In this document: one piece after another, positions 25,823 through 60,402 of the stretch
How the letters are laid out: each line of letters opens with the position of its first letter
How positions within the stretch are numbered: the first letter of the stretch is position 1
NCBI GenBank assembly: GCA_016934635.1
Contig: JAFGSK010000017.1
Location: forward strand, 4,987-68,986
Reading direction: 5' to 3'
Source of the DNA: a candidate division WOR-3 bacterium
GTDB taxonomy: Bacteria; Hydrothermota; Tepidihabitantia; B3-TA06
DNA: 64,000 bases
Program-made: the position numbers and the translations under genes
The notes under the pieces: model-generated
What the model was told of the DNA's origin: nothing
The model's input: the letters and a program-made list of their open reading frames with translations, nothing else
Databases searched by the model: none

Positions 25823-25983
25823 ACAAGGGGGTTAGCCCTTCAGGCTCGCTAAAGCGTAAAGCCCCTTGTCAAAATATCTCTGCACGCTACTGCGCCACGG
25901 TCTAATACGAGAATTCTCGGCTTGACAACTCGTATTACTTGCGTATCTTTATTATAATGTAAACCAAAGTGTTGGAGGTTATA

Positions 25984-27402
25984 ATGAAACTCTTTGGGGC
26001 TTTCATCATCTGGGGACTGCTACTTGCCAGCTTCCCTGTTAGGGCCGGATGGGTAAAAAGCTACGATGGCGGGGAGAAAAGTGAGTTGGGTGTAGTAGTC
26101 CAGCATACAGCTGACGGGGGCTTTGCAACCATCGGCTTAAGCTTTGATCCCGTTTCAGTCGAAGGTAACATCTGGCTTTTACGGACCGATTCAGAAGGCA
26201 AAAAGCTGTGGGAAAAGAACCACGGCCCCGTTGCAGGGTGGAATCCCTGCGGACAACGAACATCTGACGGTGGATATATCCTCAGCGGCGCTGCAAGACC
26301 CCTCGAGGATGGAGCTTGCGACATCTGGCTCATAAAAACCGATTCTGAGGGCGATGAAGTATGGACCAAGACATACGGCGGGCCGATGAATGACGCCGCC
26401 GAATCCATCGAACAAACCGATGATGGTGGATACGTTATCGTGGGGTTCCGAGACGCCATCGAAATCGACGACCCAACTAATGCTGACATGTGGCTCCTGA
26501 AACTTGACCCTAACGGCGACACCCTATGGACAAAAACGTACGGCGTCGAGGAGGAACCTAACTACGGCAAGTTCGTATCTCAAACGTCTGACGGTAGATA
26601 TATAATAGCCTGTCAACTCAACACTCCGGAAGATTCAACGATCTCAATCTTGAAAACCGATGCTCTGGGTGACAGTGTCTGGACTTTCAAAACCTATCAA
26701 GCCGAGTTAAACTGTGTCCGGCAAACCTCAGACGAAGGTTACGTAGCCACAGGAATAAAAATCGATAATATAAACCTGCTCAAATTGGACAATGACGGAG
26801 AACTTCTTTGGGAGAAAAACTACGGCGATACTGATCAAAACGATGGAGCCTACTGCGTTCAAGAAGTCGAGAACGGTAATTTCGTCGTCACCGGCTTCTA
26901 CAACATGTATTTTTCACATTCGGGTATAAATTCACAAGGCTGGCTCTTAAAAATCGATCCAAATGGTGATACCATGTGGTCCAGGCTCTACGGTAGTGGA
27001 GGTACTTCCAGCGACGCTCACTGGATAGAGCAAACCTCGGACGGTGGTTATATCCTGACCGGTGGTACTCAATTCTCGGCCAAAGTGGGTTCAGACCTCG
27101 TTCTCATTAAAACCGACTCGGAAGGTAAAGTGGGGGTTGAAGAACCCGTACCCGCAACACACTCCAACGACTGGCAGCTCCTCTCCCCAATCGGCAACGA
27201 GATAGTGCTCAGGTTTGAGGGTAGAGCCGACGGGTTACATGCCGAGGTATTCGACGCGGCAGGTTGCAAGGTTAATGAGATACACTCAGCCGCTTCGAGC
27301 GTGACCTTGAGCTGGGGCAAAGAACAGAATCCCGGAGTCTACTTTATCAAGGAGATTTCTGGAACGGCCCTGCCTGCTCAAAAAGTAATACTCGTTAAAT
27401 AG
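25984..27402 (+). CDS. Secreted beta-propeller-repeat (SBBP-like) protein with T9SS C-terminal sorting domain
   Basis: Signal peptide MKLFGAFIIWGLLLASFPVRA; about 8 repeats of D.WL.KTD..GD..WTKTYGG....A.S..QT.DGGY...G; CTD ...GVYFIKEISGTALPAQKVILVK. Confidence 0.65.
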   Translation: MKLFGAFIIWGLLLASFPVRAGWVKSYDGGEKSELGVVVQHTADGGFATIGLSFDPVSVEGNIWLLRTDSEGKKLWEKNHGPVAGWNPCGQRTSDGGYILSGAARPLEDGACDIWLIKTDSEGDEVWTKTYGGPMNDAAESIEQTDDGGYVIVGFRDAIEIDDPTNADMWLLKLDPNGDTLWTKTYGVEEEPNYGKFVSQTSDGRYIIACQLNTPEDSTISILKTDALGDSVWTFKTYQAELNCVRQTSDEGYVATGIKIDNINLLKLDNDGELLWEKNYGDTDQNDGAYCVQEVENGNFVVTGFYNMYFSHSGINSQGWLLKIDPNGDTMWSRLYGSGGTSSDAHWIEQTSDGGYILTGGTQFSAKVGSDLVLIKTDSEGKVGVEEPVPATHSNDWQLLSPIGNEIVLRFEGRADGLHAEVFDAAGCKVNEIHSAASSVTLSWGKEQNPGVYFIKEISGTALPAQKVILVK

Positions 27403-27433
27403 AAAAAAAGGATAAAATAAAAGGAGGCATCCC

Positions 27434-28840
27434 GTGAAAAAAGTGCCCTTTGCATTCCTCGCAACAATTGCAGTTGCAATACACCTCCACGCCGGCTGGA
27501 TAAAATCCTACGGCGGGGAGTTGAATGAAAACGGCCAGGTAATCCAGGAAACAACCGATGGAGGCTACATTGTGTTCGGAAACATCGTTTCGCCAGCAGG
27601 CTCAAGCTACATTTGGCTCCTAAAAACAGATTCAAATGGCGATACCCTTTGGACAAGGGCCTATGCCGGACCCGCACCTGCCTACTGTTATTCGGGTCAG
27701 CAAACCTCTGACGGAGGTTATATAATTGCAGGAGCTACAGAGTCTTTAGGAGATAACCACCTGGATATTTGGCTAATAAAAACGAATCCTGCAGGCGACA
27801 CCCAATGGACTAAAACCTATGGAGGGATTGGTTACGACGAGGCCTATTCCATTCAGCAAACCGAAGACGAAGGATACATAATAACCGGTACACACGACGG
27901 CCTTACTGATCCCTGGTCCGGGGATATGTGGCTCCTCAAGACAGATTCGGTTGGTGACACCTTGTGGACAAAAACATGGGCTGCTGAAAACCCAACCATG
28001 ACCGACGTAGGAAACTGCGTACGCCAAACCACGGATGGAGGTTACATTCTCTCTTGCTATACCGATTTCTCAGGTGTTACTTACAACGGCATCGTCGTAA
28101 TGAAAACCGATGACAAAGGCGATACCCTATGGACCTACCGTGATACGATCTGGTTCATGCCTTGTGTAGCGCAGACAACGGATGGCAACTTCGTCGCAAC
28201 AGGCTATAACAATGAAGACATGTTTCTCGTAAAACTTGATTCGGAAGGCGGTCTCTTGTGGAAAAAGGTCTTCGGTGATCCAAGAGAAGATTTCCGTGAT
28301 TTTGGATACTGTGTTCTAGAGATTTCAGACGGCGGCTACTTGGTAACGGGCAGTAATACCCCAGATCACAGAAATGCATGGCTTTTGAAAACCGATATTG
28401 ACGGTAACGCAATATGGAGTCGTATGTACGGCGAGGCCTCGCAATCAGATGGAGCCTATTGGGTTACTGAGAACTCTGACGGTGGCTTCATCCTAACAGG
28501 TTTTACTCAAACATGGGCTTCTGCAGGCTCAGACCTCCTCATCATAAAAACCGATTCAGAAGGTTGGGTGGCTGTTGAAGAATCCTCGCCAGTGTCGCGC
28601 CTCAATGATTTGGAAATCCTCTCCCCTATCGAACACGAGATAGTGCTCAGGTTTACCGATAGAGCCGAAGGGTTTAGCGCTGGGGTGTTCGACGCCTCGG
28701 GCCGCAAGGTTGACGAGATACGATCTGCAAGCAAGAGCGGAACCTTGAGTTGGGGCAAGGGTTTTGTGCCCGGTGTTTACTTTATTCGTGAGATATCTGA
28801 GAAGTCCCTGCCCGCTCAAAAGGTGATACTCGTTAAATAG
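27434..28840 (+). CDS. Secreted beta-propeller-repeat (SBBP-like) T9SS cargo protein, paralog of 25984..27402
   Basis: Same repeat motif (IWLLKTDSNGDTLWTRAY..., DIWLIKTNPAGDTQWTKTYGG...); CTD ...PGVYFIREISEKSLPAQKVILVK; GTG start with AAGGAGG RBS. Confidence 0.65.
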   Translation: MKKVPFAFLATIAVAIHLHAGWIKSYGGELNENGQVIQETTDGGYIVFGNIVSPAGSSYIWLLKTDSNGDTLWTRAYAGPAPAYCYSGQQTSDGGYIIAGATESLGDNHLDIWLIKTNPAGDTQWTKTYGGIGYDEAYSIQQTEDEGYIITGTHDGLTDPWSGDMWLLKTDSVGDTLWTKTWAAENPTMTDVGNCVRQTTDGGYILSCYTDFSGVTYNGIVVMKTDDKGDTLWTYRDTIWFMPCVAQTTDGNFVATGYNNEDMFLVKLDSEGGLLWKKVFGDPREDFRDFGYCVLEISDGGYLVTGSNTPDHRNAWLLKTDIDGNAIWSRMYGEASQSDGAYWVTENSDGGFILTGFTQTWASAGSDLLIIKTDSEGWVAVEESSPVSRLNDLEILSPIEHEIVLRFTDRAEGFSAGVFDASGRKVDEIRSASKSGTLSWGKGFVPGVYFIREISEKSLPAQKVILVK

Positions 28841-29108: not shown

Positions 29109-31496
29109 TTATTTCTCTTCGCCCTTTTCTTCCTTCATATACTCGTGCATCGACGCAAGGCGTTTACGCACCTTACCAAATACTTCTATCGCAGTAACTC
29201 CTGTCAGCACCTCAATACCTTGCTCGATTGTTTGAACTGCATAGATATGGAACTTATCTGCTTTGACCGCATCAAGAACCTCTTGACGTAACATGAGGTT
29301 GGTTACGTTCGGCGCAGGAATCATCACGCCCTGGCCTCCTGTGAGCCCCTTAGCCTTGCACAGACTGAAGAAACCCTCTATTTTCTCGTTGGCCCCGCCG
29401 ATTGGCTGAACGACGCCGTATTGATTAACAGAACCTGTAACGGCAATCGACTGGGTTAAAGGCACTCCGGAAAGGCTAGATAGTAAAGCGTAGAGCTCGG
29501 TTGATGATGCACTGTCACCCTCAAGCTCGTCGTAGAGCTGCTCGAATGTAAGGCTTGCCGAAAGCGGAAGCGGATGCTTGCCGGCAAAGGTTCCACCCAG
29601 ATAGCCTGTGATTATGAGAACTCCCTTGTTGTGGATCGGGCCACTCATCCGGGTTTCGCGTTCTATCTGCAGCACACCCTTCTTGCCAAGCCATGTCCGA
29701 GCGGTTATCTTCACAGGCTTGCCGAAAGAGAAGTCACCCAGGGTCATGACGGTTAAGCCGTTAAGCTCACCGACCTTTTCTCCATCCACATCAATTAAAA
29801 GCGTTCCACGCAGCATGAGATCCTGAAGTTTTTCTTCCACTAGCGAGCTTCGGTAGATATTTTCCTCCAGAGCCTTGTCAATGTGTTCAGGCTTGACTAC
29901 AGGGGAACCTGCATCCATTGCCCAGAAACTCGCCTCACTGGCCAGGTCCGAAATTTGCAGGAACCGTGTGGAAAGGCGCTCCTGATCTGCTGCAGCTCTG
30001 GAACCGTACTCGATCATGCTTGTAACCGCCTCACGAGTGAAAGGCCTCAATCCGTCATACTTACAACGTGCGGCGATGAAACGTGCGTAGGCAAGTTCAT
30101 TTTCCTCGTCGCGCGGCATGTCTACGTCGAAATCGGCACGAACCTTGAACAAACGGCGGAAGTCTTCGTCCAGTTCGTGGAGTAAGGAGTATATGTAGGG
30201 GGAACCGACTATGATAACCTTGAAATCTACCGGTATCGGCTGTGGGCGAAGGGTCTCGATGATTGCACCTCGGACCTTCTCTGAGATGTTTTCAATCTTT
30301 GCCTCGTTTGAAAGCAAGGTTCGTTTGAGTGCTTCCCAGGCAAAGGGTTGAGCAAGAAGCTCTCGGGCAGGCAAGAGAAGATAGCCGCCGTTGGCGCGGT
30401 GCACTCCTCCCGGTTTAATCTTGGAAAAGTCAGTAACCATATTGCCGTTCACATTCCGGTACTCGATTGCGCCGAACAGGTTGTAATAGGTGGGATTATC
30501 CTCGAAGATGACCGGTGCGCCGTTGTACTGAGAGTTGTCAACGAATACGTTCACCTGATATCTTTCGAGAAGGGCACGCAAGTGGGCAATCTTCTCCTGA
30601 TCATCGGTCTTCTTAAAGAGATCGATGTGTTTGACAATATCACGTTTGACCCAATTGAAATACTTACTTATCCTGGTCTCTTTCTTATGTTCCTCCATCA
30701 AGGGATTAAGGAGCAGACCCAGGGCATAATAGGCGACCTTGCGGTCATATTCGGTCAGTGCTTCGATCAACTCGGTTTCAATACGACGTACCTCGGCCAG
30801 GATGGCTTCCATAATTTCGGTAAGCTCCTGCCCGGCCTTCCGAACTTTCTCCTGTTCTTCTTTGGGTAATTTTTGAAAAACCTCCTGTTCTAAAGGCTTA
30901 CCTTCGCGAATAGGTATCGGGAAAAGACCGGTCGGTCCTCGCTGTATCATAAAATCTCTCTTCTGAGCCTCTTCTGTTAGCTTTTTAAACTCGGCTTCCT
31001 TTCGTTCCTCATATTTGGCGGCAACCTTCTTGAGTTCATCCTGATACTCTTCGCTGTCAAATATCTTAGGGAGCTCGTTTCGACAGGACTTGACGAACTC
31101 ATCCATCTTCGTTGCAAATACGTGCGCAGTTCCGTTTTTAAGACTCACAGGTATCGGCTCGGAAGGCTTCTCGAAGTTGTAAACGTAAACCCAATCAAGC
31201 GGGCTTTTTTCCTCACGGGCCCTGCGGCGTACAAGTGAAGTCACGGAGGTCATTCGACCTGTCCCAACAGGACCGGAAACGTAACAGTTAAAACCTGGTG
31301 TACCATGGGCCAGGGCGAAACGAATCGCCCGCACACCTCGTTCCTGGCCTATTGTTCCGTGTAAGGGTTCAAGATCATCGGTAGTCTTGAATGAAAACCT
31401 GTCAGGTGCTATCCTTCCCCTTAGCTTGCTAAGCGGTACTACCCTTCCTTCACGCATCTTTTTTTTATCATCGGTTTTTTCAGGGCTTTTCTTCAT
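29109..31496 (-). CDS. Lon-like protease of the LonC/LonB-like type: degenerate AAA+ module fused to an S16 (Lon) Ser-Lys peptidase domain
   Basis: C-terminal ...ELEGDSASSTELYALLSSLSGVPLTQSIAVTGSVNQYGVVQPIGGANEKIEGFF... (Lon proteolytic domain with the catalytic Ser in DSAS and Lys in EKIEG). N-terminal P-loop reads GPVGTGRMT (Lys replaced) and there is no DExx Walker B (GGYLLLPAREL), i.e. probably an ATPase-inactive LonC type. Confidence 0.75.
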   Translation of the reverse strand: MKKSPEKTDDKKKMREGRVVPLSKLRGRIAPDRFSFKTTDDLEPLHGTIGQERGVRAIRFALAHGTPGFNCYVSGPVGTGRMTSVTSLVRRRAREEKSPLDWVYVYNFEKPSEPIPVSLKNGTAHVFATKMDEFVKSCRNELPKIFDSEEYQDELKKVAAKYEERKEAEFKKLTEEAQKRDFMIQRGPTGLFPIPIREGKPLEQEVFQKLPKEEQEKVRKAGQELTEIMEAILAEVRRIETELIEALTEYDRKVAYYALGLLLNPLMEEHKKETRISKYFNWVKRDIVKHIDLFKKTDDQEKIAHLRALLERYQVNVFVDNSQYNGAPVIFEDNPTYYNLFGAIEYRNVNGNMVTDFSKIKPGGVHRANGGYLLLPARELLAQPFAWEALKRTLLSNEAKIENISEKVRGAIIETLRPQPIPVDFKVIIVGSPYIYSLLHELDEDFRRLFKVRADFDVDMPRDEENELAYARFIAARCKYDGLRPFTREAVTSMIEYGSRAAADQERLSTRFLQISDLASEASFWAMDAGSPVVKPEHIDKALEENIYRSSLVEEKLQDLMLRGTLLIDVDGEKVGELNGLTVMTLGDFSFGKPVKITARTWLGKKGVLQIERETRMSGPIHNKGVLIITGYLGGTFAGKHPLPLSASLTFEQLYDELEGDSASSTELYALLSSLSGVPLTQSIAVTGSVNQYGVVQPIGGANEKIEGFFSLCKAKGLTGGQGVMIPAPNVTNLMLRQEVLDAVKADKFHIYAVQTIEQGIEVLTGVTAIEVFGKVRKRLASMHEYMKEEKGEEK

Positions 31497-31855
31497 GTCC
31501 CTAGTATATCTTCATGGCTTTCCTTGTCAATCACTTGATACCTGACCGGAGTCGTATACAGAGCTGGTGATAAAATGTCAAGGTTTTACAAGGTACATAC
31601 ATTTACAAGGATGATGACTGATTTTCCTGGGATGTTAGCTGAGAAGAATAGTTTTGAGTTCCGAATAGGCTATGCCTTAAAAACGGATTGATCTTTACTC
31701 GAAATAATTGTACTTTATAGGTACAGTTAATGTGTTCAAAAAACAGACACATTACACTCAAACCGCAACCTCTCTTATTAGGAAATGTAAAAAAAGAACT
31801 TAGGGAGTCTTTTTCTGGTACGGGAATTGCTTAGTACGATTGCAACTAGTGAATA

Positions 31856-31883
31856 TTGACAAACCGATCGGGAGCATAATAAT
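31856..31883 (+). promoter_or_regulatory. sigma70-like promoter (TTGACA-N15/16-TAATAAT) upstream of the V4R-like array
   Basis: TTGACA 31856-31861; AT-rich -10 region 31877-31883; RBS AAAGGAGG before the ATG at 31921. Confidence 0.35.
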
Positions 31884-31920: not shown

Positions 31921-32499
31921 ATGGAAGACGTGACAACCCATATGCGGGGGATGAATTCGGTTTTTCTCAAAAAGTGGATCTCGGAACGCTACGGAGAGGA
32001 TACACTGAATCAAATAAGTGCTAAAGTCAGTTCTCTAGCCCGTGAGATGTTAGAATCCCCTAACCCTAATAAATGGTATGCGACTTCTCTAACCAAAGAA
32101 ATCTACGAGGTTCTTGATAGGAAGCTCAGTCCTAATAATCCTGATGCCCTTGTAGATTTCGGAAGATTCTCCGCTGAATTGAGCATCAAAGGCTTCCTGC
32201 GATATTTGACCAGGTTACTTACCGTTCAGCAGCTCTTTAAGCGTGCAAAGGCTTTCTGGAAAAGCTATAACAAGGGAGGAAGCATAGAAACCGATCCGAT
32301 AACAGAAGAGGAAGGTCGCAAGAAAACTACCGTTTACGTTCGTGGCACTTCGGGTGTTGGTCCTCAAGGCTGTAAAGTACTGGAGGGTTACATCGAGGTG
32401 CTTATTTCCCGGACAGGAGTCAATGATATCGTAATCGAAAAGAAAACATGCATCCATAAAGGAGACAAAACTTGTTCCTGGAGGGTCAGTTGGTCTTAA
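31921..32499 (+). CDS. V4R-like array paralog 1 (192 aa): N-terminal helical region plus C-terminal V4R-type Cys motif
   Basis: MEDVTTHMRGMNSVFLKKWISERYGE...GFLRYLTRLLTVQQLFKRAKAFWKSYNKGG...GRKK...GCKVLEGYIEVL...EKKTCIHKGDKTCSWRVSW. Confidence 0.7.
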   Translation: MEDVTTHMRGMNSVFLKKWISERYGEDTLNQISAKVSSLAREMLESPNPNKWYATSLTKEIYEVLDRKLSPNNPDALVDFGRFSAELSIKGFLRYLTRLLTVQQLFKRAKAFWKSYNKGGSIETDPITEEEGRKKTTVYVRGTSGVGPQGCKVLEGYIEVLISRTGVNDIVIEKKTCIHKGDKTCSWRVSWS

Positions 32500-32503
32500 A
32501 GGA

Positions 32504-33091
32504 ATGAGATCAGAAATGGAAGAAATATCGACCTATATACGTGGAGTGAATTCAGTTTTACTCAAAAAGTGGCTCTCAGAACGTTTCGGGGAGGAAACAC
32601 TGAACGAAATATGCGCTGTGATCAGCCCTGAAGCGGGTGAAATGCTCCGCAATCCCGATCCTAATGAATGGTATCCAGTTTCTTTAACCAAAGAAGCGTA
32701 CGAGGCTATCGACCGGAAGCTAACCCCTAAATACCCGCAAGCCCTTCAAGATTTCGGAAGGTTCGAAGTTGAACAAAGCGTCAAGGGATTTTTGAGGTAT
32801 TTAGCCAGATTTCTTACAGTCCAGCAGTTATTTAAACGTGCTAAGGCTTTCTGGAAGAGTTACAATAGGGGAGGATTCATAGAAACCGATCCGGTCATCG
32901 AAGAGGAAGGCCGCAAGAAATCAAAAGTCTTCATCCATGGTTCAAGAATAGGTCCCGCGGGTTGCAAAGTGCTAAGTGGATTCATCGAGTTGTTAGTCGC
33001 CCAAACTGGTGTTCATGACATAAAGGTCGAGAAGAAAACCTGCATCCATAAAGGAGACAAAGTCTGCTCATGGGAGGTAAGCTGGGAGTAG
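32504..33091 (+). CDS. V4R-like array paralog 2 (195 aa; alternative start at 32516)
   Basis: ...IRGVNSVLLKKWLSERFGEETLNEI...GFLRYLARFLTVQQLFKRAKAFWKSYNRGG...GCKVLSGFIELL...EKKTCIHKGDKVCSWEVSWE; about 65% identical to paralog 1. Confidence 0.7.
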   Translation: MRSEMEEISTYIRGVNSVLLKKWLSERFGEETLNEICAVISPEAGEMLRNPDPNEWYPVSLTKEAYEAIDRKLTPKYPQALQDFGRFEVEQSVKGFLRYLARFLTVQQLFKRAKAFWKSYNRGGFIETDPVIEEEGRKKSKVFIHGSRIGPAGCKVLSGFIELLVAQTGVHDIKVEKKTCIHKGDKVCSWEVSWE

Positions 33092-33110
33092 AAGATTGAA
33101 AGGAGACAAA

Positions 33111-33686
33111 ATGGAAGATGTAGTAACACATGAAAAGGGAGTGGAAGCAGTTTTGATAAAATCGTGGCTCGAACAGTACTATTCTTCCGACATGGAAGAA
33201 ATCATCGATAAGCTTTCTCCCGATGCCCGTGACATGATAACTTCTCCTGCTGCAAATCAATGGTATCCTTTAGAATTGATGAAAGAGGTCTACACGGTAA
33301 TATACGAAGTAACAAAGGAAAAAGACCCTAAAGCGATAGTAGATTACGGGAGATTCTCGGCCGAGCGCAGCGCTTCCGGACTTCTAAGGTTTCTCATGAA
33401 GTTCATCGATATGAACAAGTTGATTGAACGAATGAAAGCCTTCTGGAAGCACTATCACAAAGGGGGTAAGATTACGGCATCGGAACTGGTTGAAGAAGCC
33501 GGTCGGAAGAAGAGAATAGTAGCCTACCACGGTTACGATGCAGGCCAAGCTGCATGTCTGGCTCCACTTGGATACCTTAAAGCCATTGCCGAAAGAGCCG
33601 GTGCCAAAAATGTGAAAGTCTTAGAAAAAACCTGTATCCATAAAGGAGACAAGGTCTGTTCGTGGGAAGTTAGCTGGGAGTCGTAA
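33111..33686 (+). CDS. V4R-like array paralog 3 (start taken at the MEDVVTHEKG Met, with AAAGGAG RBS; the ORF extends to 33096)
   Basis: MEDVVTHEKGVEAVLIKSWLEQYY...GLLRFLMKFIDMNKLIERMKAFWKHYHKGG...ACLAPLGYLKAI...EKTCIHKGDKVCSWEVSWES. Confidence 0.7.
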   Translation: MEDVVTHEKGVEAVLIKSWLEQYYSSDMEEIIDKLSPDARDMITSPAANQWYPLELMKEVYTVIYEVTKEKDPKAIVDYGRFSAERSASGLLRFLMKFIDMNKLIERMKAFWKHYHKGGKITASELVEEAGRKKRIVAYHGYDAGQAACLAPLGYLKAIAERAGAKNVKVLEKTCIHKGDKVCSWEVSWES

Positions 33687-33703
33687 AAGAATGGAGAATT
33701 GAA

Positions 33704-34279
33704 ATGAAGGACATTGCCACCCACGATAAGGGAATAACACCGGTTCGTATTAAATCCTGGCTCGAGGAGTGTTACAAACAATCGGACATCGAAAAGATAC
33801 ACAAGAAACTATCGCCCGAGGCTTACAAAATGCTAACGTCGCCTGTCGGAAATAATTGGTACCCGGTTGAACTTACACGAGAGGTATACAATACAGTAAC
33901 CGACGTACTCGGGAAGCGCAATCCCAGGGTGCTGATCGATTATGGTTATTATTCCGCCCAACACAGCATCACCGGCGTGCTCAGATTCCTGATGAAACTG
34001 GTCGATACGAACAAGATAGCTAAGCGTATGGGTGCTTTTTGGAAATTTTACCATAACGGTGGAAAAACAACTGCAGGCGAAGTAGTTGAGGAGGGAGGAC
34101 GTAAAAAAAGAACTATATCTTACTACGGTTATGACGCAGGCAGATACGGCTGTCTGGTTTTCGAAGGATACGCTCGAGCATTAACAGAGAAGGCGGGAGG
34201 CAAAAACGTCACTATTGTAAAAAAGAAATGTATTTACAAGGGAGATGATTGTTGTTCCTGGGAAGTAAGCTGGGAGTAG
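33704..34279 (+). CDS. V4R-like array paralog 4
   Basis: MKDIATHDKGITPVRIKSWLEECY...GVLRFLMKLVDTNKIAKRMGAFWKFYHNGG...GCLVFEGYARAL...KKKCIYKGDDCCSWEVSWE. Confidence 0.7.
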   Translation: MKDIATHDKGITPVRIKSWLEECYKQSDIEKIHKKLSPEAYKMLTSPVGNNWYPVELTREVYNTVTDVLGKRNPRVLIDYGYYSAQHSITGVLRFLMKLVDTNKIAKRMGAFWKFYHNGGKTTAGEVVEEGGRKKRTISYYGYDAGRYGCLVFEGYARALTEKAGGKNVTIVKKKCIYKGDDCCSWEVSWE

Positions 34280-34306
34280 GTAATTATTTTGAATCGGAGG
34301 CTATGT

Positions 34307-34879
34307 ATGACATATGACCGCGGCTCAACCGCTATACTAACGAGAGATTGGTTGAAAGAACGCTTTGGAGAGGATGGTCTAAAAAAGGTCGCCGGAAAGC
34401 TTAAAGCTGACGCCTATGACATGCTCCTGAACACTCATTCAAATGCATGGTATCCTACGCCACTTATCAAGGAAGTATACAAGGTTATCTCCGATGAGTA
34501 TGCTGGACGGTATCCGGATGTAATGTACGATTGCGGCCGCTACTGTGCTCAAAAATCCGCAACAGGGATATTGAGGTTCCTGATGAAGAATATCTCGATC
34601 GAGAATCTTTTCAAGAGGACCAAATCCTTCTGGAAGCATTTTAACAAAGGTGGAGGTGCAGAAATCCTGAAGCTGGAAGACGAAGAAGGTGAAAAGAAAA
34701 TGAAGTTTATTATTCACGAGTATGACGTTGGTGTACCAGGTTGTCAAACCATGCACGGCTTTATTGAAGGGATTGCTGGGATGGCGGATTCAAAGACAAA
34801 AGAGGTTCACGTGGAAAAGAAGGAGTGTTTGCATAATGGAGATGATTTTTGTGCATGGGAGATCAACTGGAAGGTCTAA
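34307..34879 (+). CDS. V4R-like array paralog 5 (start at the MTYDRG Met with GGAGG RBS; the ORF extends to 34289)
   Basis: MTYDRGSTAILTRDWLKERFGEDGL...GILRFLMKNISIENLFKRTKSFWKHFNKGG...GCQTMHGFIEGI...EKKECLHNGDDFCAWEINWKV. Confidence 0.7.
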   Translation: MTYDRGSTAILTRDWLKERFGEDGLKKVAGKLKADAYDMLLNTHSNAWYPTPLIKEVYKVISDEYAGRYPDVMYDCGRYCAQKSATGILRFLMKNISIENLFKRTKSFWKHFNKGGGAEILKLEDEEGEKKMKFIIHEYDVGVPGCQTMHGFIEGIAGMADSKTKEVHVEKKECLHNGDDFCAWEINWKV

Positions 34880-34897
34880 TGAAAGTTAGCTCCTACC

Positions 34898-35473
34898 ATG
34901 AGTGATACGATTCACTACATCAAAGGAGTATTTCCTTACTCCGTAAGAACGTGGTTAAAGCAACGATTCGGTGAAGATGGCTTAAGCCACATACTCTCAA
35001 GACTCGGCCCTGACGCACGTGAAATGCTCGAATCACCTTCTTCAAACGACTGGTATCCTGCCTCGCTTCTCAAAGAAGTTTATGCCGCTATTGATGAAGA
35101 GTATTCAGGTAAATACCCCGATATCATTACAGAATACGGTCATTTCAACGCGGAGCGTGATGTTAAAGGGCTTCTGCGTTATCTTATGAAATTTGTCACG
35201 ATGGAGAAGCTTCTCAAGCGAATGCGATCCTTCTGGAAACAGTACAACCAGGGAGCAACAATCGAGGCCTCGCCTTTGAAAGAAGACGATAAAAACAAAA
35301 GTATTGTGCTGAGCGTAAAAAACTACGATCTCGGATTAGCCGGATGCACCTCTCTTACTGAGTACATTCGAGTTCTCTGCCTCAATACCGGTGCAAAAGA
35401 CCTGACAGTAAAAAAGCAGACGTGCATCCACAAGGGTAACGATGTCTGTTCCTGGGAAGTAAGCTGGGTATAA
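34898..35473 (+). CDS. V4R-like array paralog 6
   Basis: MSDTIHYIKGVFPYSVRTWLKQRFGEDGL...GLLRYLMKFVTMEKLLKRMRSFWKQYNQG...GCTSLTEYIRVL...KKQTCIHKGNDVCSWEVSWV. Confidence 0.7.
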   Translation: MSDTIHYIKGVFPYSVRTWLKQRFGEDGLSHILSRLGPDAREMLESPSSNDWYPASLLKEVYAAIDEEYSGKYPDIITEYGHFNAERDVKGLLRYLMKFVTMEKLLKRMRSFWKQYNQGATIEASPLKEDDKNKSIVLSVKNYDLGLAGCTSLTEYIRVLCLNTGAKDLTVKKQTCIHKGNDVCSWEVSWV

Positions 35474-35475
35474 AG

Positions 35476-36051
35476 ATGAGTGCGATCACTCACGAACGAG
35501 GCGTAAATGCTACGCTAGTCAAGCTTTACATAAGGGACAGGTTCGGTGAAGAAGGGGTTAAGAAGGTAAGTGCAAGATTAAACCCTGATTCGCGCGAGAT
35601 GTTTTTCAACGTAGTCAGCAATAAATGGTTCCCGGTGGAACTTATGAATGAAATCTACGAGGCTTTAGACCGTGAATTTGGAAAAGAAAATCCAGACCTT
35701 TATCGCGACTATGGCAGATTCGAGGTTGACCGGAGCATCAAAGGCTTCCTGAAATTCCTTGTCAGAAACCTCATGTCCGTCGAACAACTGCTTAAAAGGA
35801 CGCAAGCCTTCTGGAAGAACTATCACAAAGGAGGCGTGCTGGAGACGAGTAGCATTTGGGAAGACAAAGGTCTGAAACACGTTACGGTCAGTATAGAAAA
35901 GTTTAATCTTTATCCGAAAGTCTGTTCGGAGTTAGAAGGCTTCATGGAAGGCCTGGTTTTAAGGACAGGGGCAAGCAATGTAAGTATTGAAGAGAAATCG
36001 TGCATCCATAAGGGAGATAAGAATTGTTCATGGGAAGTAAGCTGGAAGTAA
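35476..36051 (+). CDS. V4R-like array paralog 7
   Basis: MSAITHERGVNATLVKLYIRDRFGEEGV...GFLKFLVRNLMSVEQLLKRTQAFWKNYHKGG...VCSELEGFMEGL...EEKSCIHKGDKNCSWEVSWK; start 2 nt after the paralog 6 stop. Confidence 0.7.
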   Translation: MSAITHERGVNATLVKLYIRDRFGEEGVKKVSARLNPDSREMFFNVVSNKWFPVELMNEIYEALDREFGKENPDLYRDYGRFEVDRSIKGFLKFLVRNLMSVEQLLKRTQAFWKNYHKGGVLETSSIWEDKGLKHVTVSIEKFNLYPKVCSELEGFMEGLVLRTGASNVSIEEKSCIHKGDKNCSWEVSWK

Positions 36052-36072
36052 TAAAGTAAGGAACGTTTCAAA

Positions 36073-36651
36073 ATGGAAGACATGACAACCCATATGCGCG
36101 GAATAAATGCCGTTCTAATCAGAAAGTGGCTATTGCAGCGTTTCGGAGAAGAAACCTTCGATAAAATAAGCTCTAAAATCAGCCTTGAAGCCCGCAACAT
36201 GCTAAAGAACACTGTTTCCAATGAGTGGTACCCGATTGCTCTTACAACAGAGATCTACAAGGTTATTGATGATGAGCTCAGCCCTGAGTACCCTGATGTC
36301 ATGAAAGAGTACGGAAGGTTCTCAGCTGAACAGAGTGTCAAAGGTTTTCTGCGTTATTTGACCAGATTGCTTACAGTCCAACAACTAACCAAACGTGCGC
36401 AGGCTTTCTGGAAGAACTATAACAAGGGAGGAAGCATAGAAGCAGGTGCAGTCACAGAGGAGAATGGACGGAAGAAAGCTATAGTTACAATTCGGGGTTT
36501 GAGTACAGGAGATTCAGGCCGTAAAGTGCTGGATGGATTTCTCGAGGTTTTAATATCCCAGACAGGTGTTCGTAATATAGAAGTCAAGAATAAATCCGGT
36601 ATCCCTCCAAGAAACAAGGTATTGCACTGGGTTGTAAGCTGGGAGGAGTAA
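36073..36651 (+). CDS. V4R-like array paralog 8: a divergent terminal copy lacking the conserved C-terminal C-I-H-K-G-D-K-x-C motif
   Basis: N-terminal two-thirds about 70% identical to paralog 1 (MEDMTTHMRGINAVLIRKWLLQRFGEETF...GFLRYLTRLLTVQQLTKRAQAFWKNYNKGG...), but the C-terminus reads ...GRKVLDGFLEVL...VKNKSGIPPRNKVLHWVVSWEE (both Cys and the HKGD motif replaced; a 3-nt insertion is visible in the nucleotide alignment). Confidence 0.6.
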   Translation: MEDMTTHMRGINAVLIRKWLLQRFGEETFDKISSKISLEARNMLKNTVSNEWYPIALTTEIYKVIDDELSPEYPDVMKEYGRFSAEQSVKGFLRYLTRLLTVQQLTKRAQAFWKNYNKGGSIEAGAVTEENGRKKAIVTIRGLSTGDSGRKVLDGFLEVLISQTGVRNIEVKNKSGIPPRNKVLHWVVSWEE

Positions 36652-36762: not shown

Positions 36763-37962
36763 CTACTGTAAGACCTTTTTTATCTTCTCCAGTGCCCAGT
36801 CTATCTCTTCTTTGGTTATTACCAGGGGCGGCGCAAATCTGATAACCTGGTGATGTGTTTCCTTGGCCAGGACACTCAAATCCCTTAGCTTCTCGCAGAA
36901 CGGTCGGGCAGCGCCCGAGCTTTCCTTGATGACCACCCCGATCATGAGACCCTTACCGCGAACGTGGTCGACATGAGGACTTTCTATCTTTTTCAGTTCC
37001 TCCATGAAGTACGAGCCGAGCTCGGCTGCCCTATCTGCAAGCTTCTCATCGATGAGTACGTTAAGGGAAGCCAGCCCTACTGCTGAGCCTAGGGGGTTGC
37101 CTCCGAAGGTGGAGCCGTGGTCCCCTGGATGAAAGACCTGCATGATATCATCGTCGCAGGCAATGCCGGACACCGGGTAAACCCCGCCACCCAGAGCCTT
37201 TCCTACGATGTATGTGTCTGGAACCACTCCCTCGTGGTCACAGCAAAACATCTTGCCGGTTCTGCCCAGCCCGGTCTGGATTTCGTCTGCAATGAGAAGA
37301 ACGTTCTTCTGTTTGCACACCTCAGCCGCTTGCTTGATGTAACCCTCCGGGGGTACAATCACTCCACCCTCGCCCTGAAGAGGCTCGAACAGGAACGCCA
37401 CCGTATCAGGTGTTATGGCTTTCTTTAAAGCCTCGATATCGCCGTAAGGCACGGTCACGAAGCCGGGTGTAAACGGCCCGAACCCGTCTCGATATTGCTC
37501 CTCGGTAGAGAATCCGACTATGGTTGTAGTACGTCCGTGAAAATTGCCCGCGCACGTTATTATCTCCGCGGCGTCCTCTTCCACACCTTTGACCTTGTAG
37601 CCCCATTTGCGAGCGGCCTTTATTGCGGTTTCCACTGCCTCGGCACCAGTATTCATGGGCAGGGCCTTTTCCTTCCCAGTAATCTCGCAGAGTTTTTTTA
37701 AGAACTCGCCCATCCGGTCGTTGTGAAACGCACGTGAGGTCAGTGTAATGCGTTCGGTTTGACCGATGAGCGCTTCGAGTACCCTTGGGTGACGATGTCC
37801 CTGGTTCACCGCCGAGTAGGCGGCCAGACAATCCAGGTACTTGTTACCGTCAACGTCCCATACCCATACACCTTCGCCCCTGGATAGCACTACGTTCAGG
37901 GGGTGGTAGTTCGAGGCTGAGTACTTCTCAGTCTGTGCAAGAATCTCTTTCGTTTTGGACAC
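36763..37962 (-). CDS. rocD: Ornithine aminotransferase (ornithine--oxo-acid transaminase), class III PLP aminotransferase
   Basis: ...LDCLAAYSAVNQGHRHPRVLEAL... (OAT-type SAVNQGH motif), ...ADEIQTGLGRTGK... with the PLP-binding Lys. Confidence 0.85.
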   Translation of the reverse strand: MSKTKEILAQTEKYSASNYHPLNVVLSRGEGVWVWDVDGNKYLDCLAAYSAVNQGHRHPRVLEALIGQTERITLTSRAFHNDRMGEFLKKLCEITGKEKALPMNTGAEAVETAIKAARKWGYKVKGVEEDAAEIITCAGNFHGRTTTIVGFSTEEQYRDGFGPFTPGFVTVPYGDIEALKKAITPDTVAFLFEPLQGEGGVIVPPEGYIKQAAEVCKQKNVLLIADEIQTGLGRTGKMFCCDHEGVVPDTYIVGKALGGGVYPVSGIACDDDIMQVFHPGDHGSTFGGNPLGSAVGLASLNVLIDEKLADRAAELGSYFMEELKKIESPHVDHVRGKGLMIGVVIKESSGAARPFCEKLRDLSVLAKETHHQVIRFAPPLVITKEEIDWALEKIKKVLQ

Positions 37963-38106: not shown

Positions 38107-39537
38107 CTACTTGATAAGTATTACCTTGCGGGCGTCTGATCTGACTTCTCCTATCGAACATATGAAATATACTCCAGGAGAAATGGTTTGGTGTGTTACC
38201 GTGATAGGCCAGGTGATGATTCCGGACTCGTTAGAAGAACGAATCTCGTCGACCTTGCGGCCTGAGGCATCGAACACCTGCACGTGAAAGCCTTCTGCAC
38301 GGTCGCGGTATCGAAGCACTATCCTTCGACCTACAGGTTGAGTTACGCACCAATCATCCTGAACGGCAGGAGACTCTTCAGCAACACTCACCGTGTCGCC
38401 CTCTGTGTCTGTCTTAACAAGCCACAAATCGTACTCTCCTGCACCGAAAGACCTGGTGGCTCCGGCAACGATGTAACCGTCGTCTGCGGCTTGATGCACA
38501 CAATAGCCTGCATCTGCATCTTCTCCACCATATATACGAGTCCAGATAGTATCTCCTTCGACGTCGGTCTTGACAAGAAAGAGATCAGTCCTCTGATCGT
38601 CCCACTCGGATGTATAACCGGTAATGATGTAGCCATCATCCGATGTAGGCTGTACCGAGCGGCCTACCCCACCCGACCATTCAACCAAGTCCACATCCAT
38701 TCTGCTCCACAGGGTGTCTCCATTCGAAGCTAACTTGAGCAGATAAAAATGGTACTTGCCGTCCCTGTACGGGGCGACGTAACCGGTCACGATGTATCCG
38801 TCGTCTGAGGTCTCCTGGGCCGCATAGCCTTTGCCGGGCCAGTCGTCTAAGGTTAACGTCCAGACCGTATCTCCATCTTCGTCGGTCTTTAATATCCAGA
38901 AGTGGTGCTCGGAGTAACCACTGACGATATAACCTGTATCCGAGGTCTCATGCACGCTAAATGCGCAAGCCTGATACTCAGCGCCATAGGTTTTTGACCA
39001 CTGGAATCCACCTTCAGAATCGGTTTTAATGAGCCAGGCTCCGGTCGTATCTCCCCAAAGTTCGGGCTGTCTGAAACCGGTTACGATAAACCCGCCGTCT
39101 GAAGTTTCTTGTACCGAGCATCCTACGCCTCCGGTGCTGTCAAAATCGAAATACCAGTCCATGTCGGAATGCCACCAGATCTCCCCACCAAGGGAATCAA
39201 GTTTCACGAGTCCTAGGTGATACTTCCCGTCATCGGTCGCCGCCATGTAGCCGGTTAATATATAACCGCAGTCTGAGGTTTCTTGGATCGAATACGCCTT
39301 ACCCCCAGTGAAAGCGAACGGCGTCGATGTCCAAAGGGTATCACCATTCTCATCCGTCTTCAGGATCCATCCTCCTGGTGATGTGGATGAATATCCAGCA
39401 ACGACGTAACCGCCTTCTGCGGTCTGGCACACACAGTATCCCTCATCATCCTGATTCTGGCCGTAGGTTTGCGTCCAGCCCGCAAGGCCTGTCAACGGCA
39501 CAAGAAAAACTCCTGAAAGACACACGATAAGTTTCAA
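38107..39537 (-). CDS. Secreted beta-propeller-repeat (SBBP-like) T9SS cargo protein
   Basis: Signal MKLIVCLSGVFLVPLTGLAGWTQTYG; repeats ...GWILKTDENGDTLWTST..., ...WLIKTDSEGGFQWSKTYG...; CTD ...PGVYFICSIGEVRSDARKVILIK. Confidence 0.65.
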   Translation of the reverse strand: MKLIVCLSGVFLVPLTGLAGWTQTYGQNQDDEGYCVCQTAEGGYVVAGYSSTSPGGWILKTDENGDTLWTSTPFAFTGGKAYSIQETSDCGYILTGYMAATDDGKYHLGLVKLDSLGGEIWWHSDMDWYFDFDSTGGVGCSVQETSDGGFIVTGFRQPELWGDTTGAWLIKTDSEGGFQWSKTYGAEYQACAFSVHETSDTGYIVSGYSEHHFWILKTDEDGDTVWTLTLDDWPGKGYAAQETSDDGYIVTGYVAPYRDGKYHFYLLKLASNGDTLWSRMDVDLVEWSGGVGRSVQPTSDDGYIITGYTSEWDDQRTDLFLVKTDVEGDTIWTRIYGGEDADAGYCVHQAADDGYIVAGATRSFGAGEYDLWLVKTDTEGDTVSVAEESPAVQDDWCVTQPVGRRIVLRYRDRAEGFHVQVFDASGRKVDEIRSSNESGIITWPITVTHQTISPGVYFICSIGEVRSDARKVILIK

Positions 39538-39593
39538 TGAATCCTCCTAATATTGAATGGTGCATTTCTTCTCCGGAGAAAAGGTCGCGTTTT

Positions 39594-41045
39594 TTATCGC
39601 ATTATCACAACCTTCCTGGTCAAGTTCGACCCGGTATCATCAATCCTGATGAAATATACACCTGGCTCGTAATGCTGACCCCAAATAATCACCCCGGACT
39701 GTTCCGGTGAGTGAATCTCTGAAACCTTGCGGCCCGAGGCGTCGAACACGTGGGCGTGAAAGCCAGAGGGTTGGTTTGAGTACTTCAGAACTATCTCTTG
39801 ACCTAAAGTCACAGATACATCCCAATTATCGAAGTTGCCCGGAGGTTCCTCTGAAATAGATAGAGTGTCCCCTTGAGCATCCGTTTTAAGAAGCCAGATA
39901 TCGTAACCTCCGGCACCGTATGATTCGGTTCCACCAACTACTATATAACCTTCGTCCGTGGTTTGGGCACCGCAATGAGCAAGATCTGCTTCTTGACCAC
40001 CGTAAGTCCGTGTCCATTGAGTATCGGCCTGTACATCCGTCCTTACGAGCCATAGGTCATCTATCTCTTCGTACCACTCGGAAGTAAATCCAGTAATGAT
40101 AAATCCACCTTCTGAGGTCTCACGTACGCATCTGGCCTCTCCACCACCGTATTCGGAAAGCCAACCCAAATCCATTCTGCTCCATAAGGTGTCACCTGCG
40201 GAATCAATCTTCAACAGGAAAAGGTGGTGTTTCCCGTCATCGAACGGAAACACGTAACCTGCGGAAATGAAGCCATTATCCGAGGTTTCTTCAACCCAGT
40301 AAGCCCTGCCGAAGAACCAATCAGGCATCCCGGTTATCCAGACGCTGTCACCTGCTTCGTTGGTTTTCAATACCCAGAAACTCAAAGGTGATGACGGGGT
40401 GGAGTAATCGGTGTATCCTGCGACAACGTATCCCCCATCAGAGGTAGTATTTACGCAGCGGCCAACGTCTTGTGAGGAGCCGCCGTACTTTCTTTCCCAT
40501 TCCAGTTCGCCTGTAGAGTCGGTTTTGATAAGCCATAAGTCCACGGTATCGGTGAAGATGAAGGGCTGCTTTGAGCCTGCTATTACGAAGCCGCCGTCAG
40601 GTGTTTCGTGCACCGAGTACCCGATCCCGCCGCTTGAATCGTGTCCGACCCAATCGGCGTCCATCCGGGTCCATAACTCCTTGCCTTCAGAATCGAGTTT
40701 AATTAAAACGAGATGGTACTTTCCGTCCAAGGTTGCCGCCTGATAACCGGTTGCCGCGTAGCTGCCATCCGAGGTTTCTATTACAGAGTACGCTGTACCT
40801 CCCATGAAACAGAATGGAGTCGAGGTCCAGAGGGTATCCCCGTTTTCATCCGTCTTTAATATCCATCCACCTGTAGTTGTTCCTGAATATCCGGCTATTA
40901 TATAATCACCGTCTACGGTTTGCTGCACGCAGTATCCCTCATCATCGGAGTCCTGGCCGTAGGTTTGCGTCCAGCCCGCAAGGCCTGTCAACGGCATAAG
41001 AAAAACCCCTGAAAGACACACGATACGTTTCATTGAATCCTCCAT
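39594..41045 (-). CDS. Secreted beta-propeller-repeat (SBBP-like) T9SS cargo protein (paralog)
   Basis: MKRIVCLSGVFLMPLTGLAGWTQTYG...; the same repeat family; CTD ...PGVYFIRIDDTGSNLTRKVVIMR. Confidence 0.65.
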   Translation of the reverse strand: MEDSMKRIVCLSGVFLMPLTGLAGWTQTYGQDSDDEGYCVQQTVDGDYIIAGYSGTTTGGWILKTDENGDTLWTSTPFCFMGGTAYSVIETSDGSYAATGYQAATLDGKYHLVLIKLDSEGKELWTRMDADWVGHDSSGGIGYSVHETPDGGFVIAGSKQPFIFTDTVDLWLIKTDSTGELEWERKYGGSSQDVGRCVNTTSDGGYVVAGYTDYSTPSSPLSFWVLKTNEAGDSVWITGMPDWFFGRAYWVEETSDNGFISAGYVFPFDDGKHHLFLLKIDSAGDTLWSRMDLGWLSEYGGGEARCVRETSEGGFIITGFTSEWYEEIDDLWLVRTDVQADTQWTRTYGGQEADLAHCGAQTTDEGYIVVGGTESYGAGGYDIWLLKTDAQGDTLSISEEPPGNFDNWDVSVTLGQEIVLKYSNQPSGFHAHVFDASGRKVSEIHSPEQSGVIIWGQHYEPGVYFIRIDDTGSNLTRKVVIMR

Positions 41046-41103
41046 TATTGAATGCTCCTTTTCTCCTCCGGAGTTTCCCCTTTGGAGACAAGATCGCTAC
41101 TTT

Positions 41104-42534
41104 TTATTCCATTAACACGACCTTCTTGGATGAACCTGACGCAACGGATTCAACCCTAATGAAATACACGCCCGGGCTGAACTCCTCGCCCCAACTAACG
41201 ATCCCGGTCTGCCCAGATGAGCGAATCTCGTCCACCTTGCGGCCCGAGGCGTCGAAGATATTTGCATGGAATCCTGAAGGACAATCCTTAAAACAGAGAA
41301 CGATCCTTTGACCCACCGGGTTCAATACATGCCAGTTTGATACTCCTGAGACCACAGGTTTCTCACTTACTGATAGCGTATCGCCTGCAACATCGGTTTT
41401 CAACAGCCAAATGTCGTAGCCCCCTGCACCGAAGGATTTTGTCGCTCCTGCCGCAATATAGCCGCCTTCGGTACATTGACCAACGCAGTAACCTATGTCT
41501 TCTGCTTCTCCACCATAGGTTCTTGTCCACTGGGTGTCCCCGGCTGGGCTTATCTTGATAAGCAATAGATCCAATATCTCATCAAGAAACCCGGTGGTAT
41601 AACCGGCAAGGATATAGTTGCCGTCTGAGGTCGGCCTTATGCATCGACCAACTCCTCCGAGTTCACCGGGAAAAAGATCAAAATCCCACTTACTCCACAG
41701 AGTGTCTCCGTCCGGATTGGTTTTCAGAACCATGAAATGATACTTGCCGTCCTCGAACGGAGCAACGTATCCTGTCGCCATATAGCCGCCGTCGGACGTT
41801 TCGGTAACGCCGTAGGCACTTCCGAAGAACCAGTCAACCATACCTGATGTCCACAACGTATCACCGACCTGGTCGGTCTTTAAGAGCCAGAAGCTCCAAG
41901 GCAAGGCAGACATCGTATACCCGGCCACGATATAGCCTCCATCTGCGGTCTGACATACGCATTGACCGCAGTCCGGAGCCTGGCCGCCGTAAGTGCGAGT
42001 CCATACAGTATCGCCATCCGAATCGAGCTTTACGAGCAAGAGATCGTCTATCTCATCGAACGCATGCGAGGTGGCGCCGGTAACTATGAAGCCCTTATCA
42101 GCGGTTTCCTGGATCGAGTATCCGATACTGCCCGGGGGATTCTCGAACCAGTCCCAGTCCCCCTTTGTCCATAAAGGATTACCGTCAGCATCGAACTTTA
42201 CCACGGTCATGTGGCATTTACCGTCCCAAAATGGTGCACTGTAGCCTGCTGCGACGAAGTCGCCTTCCGAGGTCTCGATCACCGAGTATGCCCTGCTTGT
42301 GGGCCATTCCTCCTGCGAGGCTACCGTCCATACCGTATCACCGTTCTCGTCGGTTTTGAGGACCCACAAGCTGTTTTCAGGCTGCGAATATCCTGCAACC
42401 ACGTAGTTTCCATCGGAGGTCTGGCATACACTAAAGCCCTTTTCGTCCTGAGCCGTACCATAGGTTCTCGACCAGCCTGCCTGGATCGATAAGGGTAAAA
42501 GGATTACCCCTAGAAAGAACGCAAATGTTTTCAT
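41104..42534 (-). CDS. Secreted beta-propeller-repeat (SBBP-like) T9SS cargo protein (paralog)
   Basis: MKTFAFFLGVILLPLSIQAGWSRTYG...; the same repeat family; CTD ...PGVYFIRVESVASGSSKKVVLME. Confidence 0.65.
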   Translation of the reverse strand: MKTFAFFLGVILLPLSIQAGWSRTYGTAQDEKGFSVCQTSDGNYVVAGYSQPENSLWVLKTDENGDTVWTVASQEEWPTSRAYSVIETSEGDFVAAGYSAPFWDGKCHMTVVKFDADGNPLWTKGDWDWFENPPGSIGYSIQETADKGFIVTGATSHAFDEIDDLLLVKLDSDGDTVWTRTYGGQAPDCGQCVCQTADGGYIVAGYTMSALPWSFWLLKTDQVGDTLWTSGMVDWFFGSAYGVTETSDGGYMATGYVAPFEDGKYHFMVLKTNPDGDTLWSKWDFDLFPGELGGVGRCIRPTSDGNYILAGYTTGFLDEILDLLLIKISPAGDTQWTRTYGGEAEDIGYCVGQCTEGGYIAAGATKSFGAGGYDIWLLKTDVAGDTLSVSEKPVVSGVSNWHVLNPVGQRIVLCFKDCPSGFHANIFDASGRKVDEIRSSGQTGIVSWGEEFSPGVYFIRVESVASGSSKKVVLME

Positions 42535-53744: not shown

Positions 53745-53760
53745 AAATCTCTCCTTAAAC

Positions 53761-53831
53761 CTGGGGCGCAGGGATTCGAACCCCGATTGGAGGAACCAAA
53801 ATCCTCCGTCCTGCCTTTAGACGACGCCCCA
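53761..53831 (-). tRNA. tRNA-Gln (anticodon UUG); 71 nt; U1-A72 pair and G73 discriminator; CCA not encoded
   Basis: Reverse complement: TGGGGCGTCGTCTAAAGGCAGGACGGAGGATTTTGGTTCCTCCAATCGGGGTTCGAATCCCTGCGCCCCAG; anticodon stem GAGGA/TCCTC with loop TTTTGGT; T-loop TTCGAAT. Confidence 0.8.
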
Positions 53832-60243: not shown

Positions 60244-60329
60244 TTGCAGTAGGAAAAAGGAGCACGATTTCGGGGTCCCCACAGAGATGCGCTAATTTAG
60301 CTAGAACCGCGCTACTTCGTATGGTGAAG

Positions 60330-60402
60330 TGGAGACGAGCGGACTCGAACCGCCGACCCCCTGCTTGCAAAGCAGGTGCTCTCCCAGCTGAGCTACGTCC
60401 CC
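60330..60402 (-). tRNA. tRNA-Ala (anticodon UGC); 73 nt; G3:U70 identity pair; CCA not encoded
   Basis: Reverse complement GGGGACGTAGCTCAGCTGGGAGAGCACCTGCTTTGCAAGCAGGGGGTCGGCGGTTCGAGTCCGCTCGTCTCCA. Confidence 0.9.

Follow-up and report, generated by a model that had tools for sequence, protein, structure and literature searches.

The stretch analysed here (the window) is a 64-kb segment of contig JAFGSK010000017.1, from the metagenome-assembled genome of a candidate division WOR-3 bacterium. It carries an old, lineage-specific tandem array of genes for stand-alone cytoplasmic proteins, with eight live genes (31921-36651) and one relic upstream of them. The eight consecutive open reading frames (ORFs), all on the + strand and with locus tags from JXM67_02900 onward, encode homologues that align over their full length with pairwise identities of 36-68%, and the maximal ORFs are 191-196 amino acids (aa) long. 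An array of this extent, strand and homology had been described in a first-pass annotation, and our analysis confirms it. When all ORFs of the window were searched with the family profile, each of the eight copies was matched at E values of 1e-81 to 1e-97, and no further ORF was matched. The features of the locus are given below; "zinc triad" stands for three Cys residues predicted to bind zinc, SD for a Shine-Dalgarno-like sequence and nt for nucleotides.

31574-31645, + strand: relic of a ninth copy (72 nt), the decayed 3′ end of a copy 3/4-type gene, found through repeat families D2 and D5 and by tblastn
31856-31883, + strand: promoter-like site TTGACA-16-AATAAT, 38 nt upstream of copy 1, agreeing with 11 of 12 consensus positions
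31921-32499, + strand: copy 1, 192 aa, zinc triad present, SD AAGGAGG at spacing 10
32516-33091, + strand: copy 2, 191 aa from the NCBI start (maximal ORF from 32504), zinc triad C154/C180/C188
33111-33686, + strand: copy 3, 191 aa (maximal ORF from 33096), zinc triad present, SD AAGGAG at spacing 5
33704-34279, + strand: copy 4, 191 aa, zinc triad present, sister of the copy 3 clade
34307-34879, + strand: copy 5, 190 aa (maximal ORF from 34289), zinc triad present, SD GGAGG at spacing 6
34898-35473, + strand: copy 6, 191 aa, zinc triad present, no SD-like site
35476-36051, + strand: copy 7, 191 aa, zinc triad present, start 2 nt past the copy 6 stop
36073-36651, + strand: copy 8, 192 aa, intact ORF, a Cys-less derivative of the copy 1/2 clade

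For copies 2, 3 and 5, NCBI gene calls and the orthologues described below point to internal ATGs as start codons (32516, 33111 and 34307, respectively). With these starts the proteins are 190-192 aa long and the spacers 2-27 nt, so that the range of 2-23 nt first reported keeps its minimum and loses its maximum. Similarly, the report of an own Shine-Dalgarno sequence for every gene holds for copies 1, 3, 4, 5 and 8 and, with a weak site, for copy 2; no SD-like site was found before copies 6 and 7. Copy 7 may be translationally coupled to copy 6, since it starts just behind it. The array is probably transcribed from a single promoter. The promoter-like site is a consensus match only, the number of such sites in the region not exceeding that in shuffled controls, and a search for internal terminators in the array found none above shuffled controls. 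The array has a G+C content of 0.44-0.45 (window positions 32000-36000), compared with 0.49-0.51 in the flanks, and its coding strand is strongly purine-rich (GC skew +0.10 to +0.17, AT skew +0.13 to +0.16). This composition probably reflects Lys/Glu-rich proteins rather than a foreign origin of the array, which is less favoured because the orthology is old.

Each protein is predicted to be one heme-less domain of the H-NOX type, with seven helices and a four-stranded sheet. A structure was predicted for copy 2, which is 100% identical to protein P0001, at a confidence (pLDDT) of 88.6. The family has both the seven-helix plus four-strand architecture of H-NOX and the four-stranded antiparallel sheet of the alpha/beta V4R fold, and its best structural matches are H-NOX proteins. 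Of the searches of PDB sequences, those with a narrow profile or a single copy gave no meaningful match, and only the broad family profile (A5) was successful. Its match to MopR (E = 4e-4) aligns the family Cys with C155/C181/C189 and a consensus Glu with E178, and its match to Shewanella oneidensis (So) H-NOX (E = 7e-4), which spans the whole protein, aligns these Cys with C139/C164/C172. From the published ligands, which are C151/E172/C177/C185 in DmpR (PMC7264223) and C139/H161/C164/C172 in So H-NOX (PMC7108781), the aligned residues are the zinc ligands of homologous sites. The triad, C-x26-C-x8-C, has the spacing of DmpR C151/C177/C185 and is found in 7 of the 8 window copies, 34 of the 38 array proteins compared and at least 90% of the distant relatives. 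Thus, the C-terminal Cys motif first ascribed to all eight copies is shared by seven, copy 8 having lost it through in-frame substitutions.

The first-pass annotation had read the C-terminus as a V4R-type domain, which agrees with the V4R fold and with the position of the triad on the MopR zinc ligands and is not borne out by the Pfam V4R model (PF02830/COG1719), where copy 3 scores best with 24.3 bits and the others 0-20 against a threshold of 31 bits. The Pfam HNOB model (PF07700, threshold 25.5 bits) gives at most 22 bits, for copy 8, and its matches span the N-terminal half only. For DUF2378/TIGR02265, also put forward for checking, the scores stay below the cut-off: copy 7 alone matches DUF2378 (12 bits, E = 0.18, Pfam cut-off 22.2 bits) and no window copy matches TIGR02265 at E ≤ 1. 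The best NCBIfam match for 7 of the 8 copies is MsvR (NF053755), at no more than 29.6 bits against an equivalog cut-off of 220 bits, with E = 5e-7 for copy 3, and confined to the C-terminal V4R part (profile positions 145-236); the 190-aa window proteins have no helix-turn-helix (HTH) domain. Heme binding by H-NOX depends on a proximal His on helix αF and a YxSxR motif (PMC8196705). Among the 38 array sequences no His is conserved, the best column having His in 24, and the YxSxR motif is present in none. In the profile alignment, His103 of So H-NOX falls in a five-residue insertion that the family lacks, and its Y-S-S-P-R is aligned to non-matching residues and a gap.

Among 1.84 billion cluster representatives searched with a profile, 2226 were relatives at E ≤ 1e-3, of which only 12 reached E ≤ 1e-30. 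The distant relatives are mostly stand-alone proteins of 180-200 aa, and their weak matches to curated families (n = 66) are to V4R (44, E < 0.01), HNOB (12) and DUF2378/TIGR02265 (10-11). Near-invariant among them are G14, W56, W117, G124 and the three Cys. Some of these proteins share a polypeptide with a Ser/Thr kinase or a LuxR-type HTH domain, as sensor input modules do. One relative of 410 aa (P0035) is a natural fusion of two complete family domains, in both of which His stands at the third Cys position (C-x-H-R-G-D-x-x-H); this hints at domains that function in pairs and at a metal site that can accept variants of the Cys2His type. The distant relatives are single genes in unrelated contexts with no conserved neighbourhood; exopolysaccharide or exosortase genes occur close to two of five, a pattern too weak for use.

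All close members of the family that were seen come from WOR-3-type genomes and from metagenome contigs. At the syntenic locus of relatives there are 1 (L008), 5 (L005), 11 (L009) and 13 (L001) copies, so similar arrays do exist elsewhere, as the first-pass annotation had thought worth looking for, and short metagenome contigs carry 2-4 adjacent copies. The contigs were scanned with a single peptide pattern (one genome locus and four metagenome loci were found), and this census, obtained by word- and pattern-limited searches, is a lower bound. In a tree of 38 proteins, which counts the copies of L001, L005 and L009 from 0 (the number given to the copy upstream of a GH114-like gene), collinear orthology links W1 with L001_5 and L005_3, W2 with L001_6, W3 with L001_7 and L005_4, W5 with L001_8, and W6 with L001_10. 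Copy 1 is 85% identical to its orthologue at L005 10001-10579 and 77% to that at L001 5274-5852, with ratios of nonsynonymous to synonymous substitution rates (dN/dS) of 0.17 and 0.12, respectively. The orthologues are L001 5870-6445 for copy 2 (76% identity, dN/dS 0.08), L001 7067-7636 for copy 5 (77%, dN/dS 0.11) and L001 8359-8925 for copy 6 (55%), and those of copy 3 are 83% and 69% identical to it. Copy 7 groups weakly with L001 7757-8335 and L009 11196-11852 in the tree, and copy 4 has no one-to-one orthologue in the loci examined. The orthologue dN/dS of 0.08-0.17, a measure proposed at the outset, places the copies under purifying selection, and the synonymous sites of the paralogues are saturated or nearly so. 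Together with the collinear orthologues, these ratios indicate that the duplications predate the split of these genomes and that each paralogue has been maintained. Recent duplication or gene conversion was rejected, as the longest repeats that the copies share at the DNA level have an identity of 71-72%.

Two lineages of the family lack the triad. Copy 8 has replaced it in frame (GC to GR, TC to SG and C-S-W to L-H-W), and its H-K-G-D loop is also replaced. Its dN/dS against copies 1 and 2 is 0.22-0.29. A frameshifted pseudogene was rejected for copy 8, which contains in-frame substitutions only and has a dN/dS well below 1. It lost its Cys independently, inside the copy 1/2 clade, and without decaying. 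The other lineage is a "copy 0" clade just upstream of the GH114-like (MJ1477/TM1410) gene in three relatives, each member of which misses all three Cys:

L001 767-1366: copy 0 gene
L005 6705-7286: copy 0 gene
L009 3004-3591: copy 0 gene

As all three genomes share this lack, copy 0 is a maintained and presumably metal-free lineage of the family. The GH114-adjacent clades 0-3 are absent from the window. The relic upstream of copy 1 reads NVKVLQGTYIYKDDD*FSWDVS* where copy 3 has NVKVLEKTCIHKGDKVCSWEVSW; with family proteins as tblastn queries it scores 28.9 bits (E = 6e-6, 54-58% identity to the copy 3 clade), and the best of 100 shuffles scores 23.1 bits. Since this 3′ end of copy 3/4 type stands in place of clades 0-3, it shows a truncation of the array at its 5′ end in the window lineage, where a LonC gene now stands.

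The positions that distinguish the orthologue groups are located on single helix faces, namely 80/84/88 on αD, 106/110/113 on αF and 153/157/164 on αG, with others on αE and the β-strands. Most of these group-specific changes alter the size or polarity of the residue (e.g., G to W or F at 153). The identity is 0.63 within orthologue groups and 0.38 between groups. The single-face location of these residues suggests that the paralogues have differently shaped cavities.

The neighbours of the array, and the two distant tRNAs that are the window's only Rfam/ARAGORN matches (no Rfam family was found in or near the array), are the following.

29109-31496, - strand: LonC-type Lon-like protease, divergent from the array (Pfam AAA_32, LonB_AAA-LID, LonC_helical, Lon_C)
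36763-37962, - strand: ornithine--oxo-acid transaminase, convergent with the array (TIGR01885, 550 bits, cut-off 378)
53760-53832, - strand: tRNA-Gln(TTG), Rfam/ARAGORN
60329-60402, - strand: tRNA-Ala(TGC), Rfam/ARAGORN

The protease is thus of the LonC type and divergent, as first annotated. Its Walker A motif is degenerate (GPVGTGRMT, Arg-Met replacing the expected Lys-Ser/Thr), which we take to fit the ATPase-inactive LonC class. Its association with the array is not conserved, since relatives carry the GH114-like gene in its place. A functional link between the two was rejected on that ground and because the large ORF beside the array in L009 is a subtilase, followed by a 192-aa tetratricopeptide repeat protein. 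All four genomes with an array have the transaminase next to its 3′ end, as a conserved marker of synteny. The segment formed by LonC, array and transaminase is flanked in inverted orientation by five secreted paralogues, repeat proteins of about 470-480 aa (25969-28840 on the + strand, 38107-42534 on the - strand), which have β-propeller-like repeats; two of them show weak, sub-threshold matches to the C-terminal sorting domain of the type IX secretion system (T9SS). The first-pass annotation had noticed these inverted T9SS-type paralogues, and 27434-28840 and 38107-39537 are indeed 37% identical. As L005 has only the downstream set, the upstream one may be a trace of the rearrangement by which the array was truncated. 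Clusters of 2-4 genes for S-adenosylmethionine (SAM)-dependent methyltransferases precede the GH114-like gene and the array at L005 2803-6494 and L008 1309-3378, the latter cluster also with a radical SAM gene; such clusters are absent from the window. A defence system was rejected as well, PADLOC giving no match for four copies and only marginal, non-significant ones for LonC and the transaminase.

The explanation that we favour, at roughly even confidence, is that the array encodes a battery of stand-alone binding or sensor modules for small molecules, probably hydrophobic ones, with different specificities. By analogy with DmpR, MopR, PoxR, Thor-TRAPPC3 and So H-NOX, zinc would fasten the β3-β4 hairpin to helix αG and so help to enclose an internal cavity. 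The phenol cavity of DmpR is lined in part by αG residues one and two turns past the first zinc Cys (PMC7264223). Ligand cavities are present in V4R, TRAPPC3 and PoxR, and in Thor-TRAPPC3 and PoxR the zinc site tethers the sheet to a helix, creating them (PMC10933270). V4R is regarded as a domain for hydrophobic ligands that signals in cis or in trans (PMC2253512). The variable positions on one face of αD, αF and αG, combined with purifying selection on each paralogue, argue for modules with different specificities, in which differently shaped cavities would accept different ligands. Having no output domain, the proteins would exert their effect in trans and probably as dimers, either as carriers or by regulating partners whose genes lie elsewhere. 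It is the helix-face clustering, the precedents of DmpR, TRAPPC3 and PoxR, and the kinase, HTH and two-domain fusions taken together that lead us to favour a set of ligand-binding or sensor modules, and the variation of the orthologue set among genomes (1, 5, 8, 11 or 13 copies) fits members that work independently. A more elaborate version, which we think improbable, is a combinatorial system in which the paralogues, including the zinc-less ones, would form defined homo- and heterodimers with cavities for different small molecules, or else an operon-encoded H-NOX/V4R complex like the Bet3 core of TRAPP.

Several observations weigh against the battery of binding modules. All curated hidden Markov models stay below threshold for the window copies. 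The array operon contains no output or partner gene, and co-transcription is deduced from gene spacing alone. The lining of the cavity is drawn only from helical periodicity and from homology to the pocket positions of DmpR, and ligand, zinc and partner protein are predictions from sequence and analogy. Part of the family can do without the zinc site, as is clear from the Cys-less members. Furthermore, the position aligned to Glu178 of MopR is Lys in copies 1, 2, 4, 5 and 6; because this fourth-ligand position is mostly Lys, not Glu or His, the zinc site here would consist of three Cys plus some other fourth ligand.

The most serious rival, though a doubtful one, is that the proteins are thiol/zinc redox sensors or buffers, whose zinc-bound Cys would be oxidised to disulfides in a conformational switch, for sensing or buffering oxidant stress in a strict anaerobe. 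The alignment of the triad with C139/C164/C172 of So H-NOX and the missing heme ligands would suit this, as would the matches to MsvR, a methanogen regulator that is a direct precedent for such a switch, since the redox-relevant C206/C232/C240 of MaMsvR have the same 26/8 spacing (PMC3729527). Heme-free Vibrio cholerae (Vc) H-NOX senses oxidants through its zinc site and, once oxidised, inhibits the kinase HnoK in trans (PMC7108781). However, no kinase, cyclase or HTH partner is found in or beside the operon, the Cys-less clade is conserved in three genomes and Cys-less copy 8 is still constrained, and a single signal would leave unexplained why 8-13 paralogues are separately conserved with group-specific residues away from the zinc site. 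It is less probable again that the paralogues form a hetero-oligomeric scaffold, pairing via their N-terminal helices, like the Bet3 family in TRAPP or BcsD in cellulose secretion, in proportions set by one operon. The variable orthologue complement, with 1, 5, 8, 11 or 13 members and different clades missing, argues against an obligate complex of fixed subunits, and no longin, roadblock, GTPase or glycosyltransferase partner is present in the operon.

Two further readings have very little left in their favour. Canonical heme-based H-NOX sensors of nitric oxide (NO) or O2 would agree with the structural matches and the weak HNOB scores of up to 22 bits, but are effectively refuted at the sequence level by the missing conserved His and YxSxR motif and by the absence of the insertion that holds His103, and no partner kinase or cyclase is found. 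Recent duplication, or the decay of non-functional copies, could be read into the relic and the Cys loss of copy 8 and is refuted for copies 1-7. The paralogues are just 36-68% identical, not the near-identical duplicates that had been considered at the outset, and have saturated or nearly saturated synonymous sites; all eight ORFs are intact, and dN/dS is low both between orthologues and in copy 8.

Almost nothing is known of the role of stand-alone V4R, DUF2378 and heme-less H-NOX-like proteins, widespread as these are. The WOR-3 clade offers a natural experiment, with at least ten old paralogue lineages side by side under purifying selection and with natural zinc-less variants. Should the ligand differ from copy to copy, the array would reveal how a fold shared by phenol biosensors (DmpR, MopR), NO sensors and TRAPP encodes specificity. 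If combinatorial dimers were formed, they would be a bacterial analogue of an odorant-binding-protein repertoire on the H-NOX/V4R fold; either version, if true, would be the first lead to the function of the stand-alone V4R/DUF2378 proteins, a large orphan group.

The superfamily itself is already known, as are stand-alone sets with many paralogues, namely the V4R proteins of Ignicoccus, of which there are seven (PMC2253512), and DUF2378. The DUF2378/TIGR02265 proteins (Myxococcus paralogous family) resemble the array family in being stand-alone, about 185-200 aa long, multi-paralogue and part of the same continuum, and one of them is induced by a hydrophobic quinolone signal (PMC9257966). They differ in being described as restricted to myxobacteria, and the window copies barely match their model (E = 0.18); we found no description of operonic tandem arrays for them in the literature, nor, in the searchable literature, of arrays of 8-13 such genes. 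Compared with the V4R systems, i.e., the stand-alone protein MJ1460, the sensor domains of XylR, DmpR, MopR and PoxR, and MsvR, the array family has an extra N-terminal helical subdomain of the H-NOX type, no fused AAA+ or HTH output and a mostly unconserved Glu ligand. TRAPP Bet3 and the archaeal TRAPPC3/V4R proteins (Thorarchaeota, Ignicoccus) have dispersed paralogues, whereas those of the array are bacterial, tandem and operonic, lack a longin, roadblock or GTPase partner and have a longer H-NOX-type N-terminal subdomain. So and Vc H-NOX likewise have a Cys3 zinc site, but the array family has no proximal His, no YxSxR motif and no adjacent kinase or cyclase, stays below the HNOB gathering score and occurs as 8-13 tandem paralogues, unlike the single gene of bacterial H-NOX. 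New are therefore a subfamily without a curated model of its own, joining the full H-NOX architecture to the V4R zinc triad without heme ligands, and an old, collinear, operonic array of 8-13 genes with conserved zinc-less members in the WOR-3 clade. In this way the family bridges two annotation classes, connecting families that curated models keep apart.

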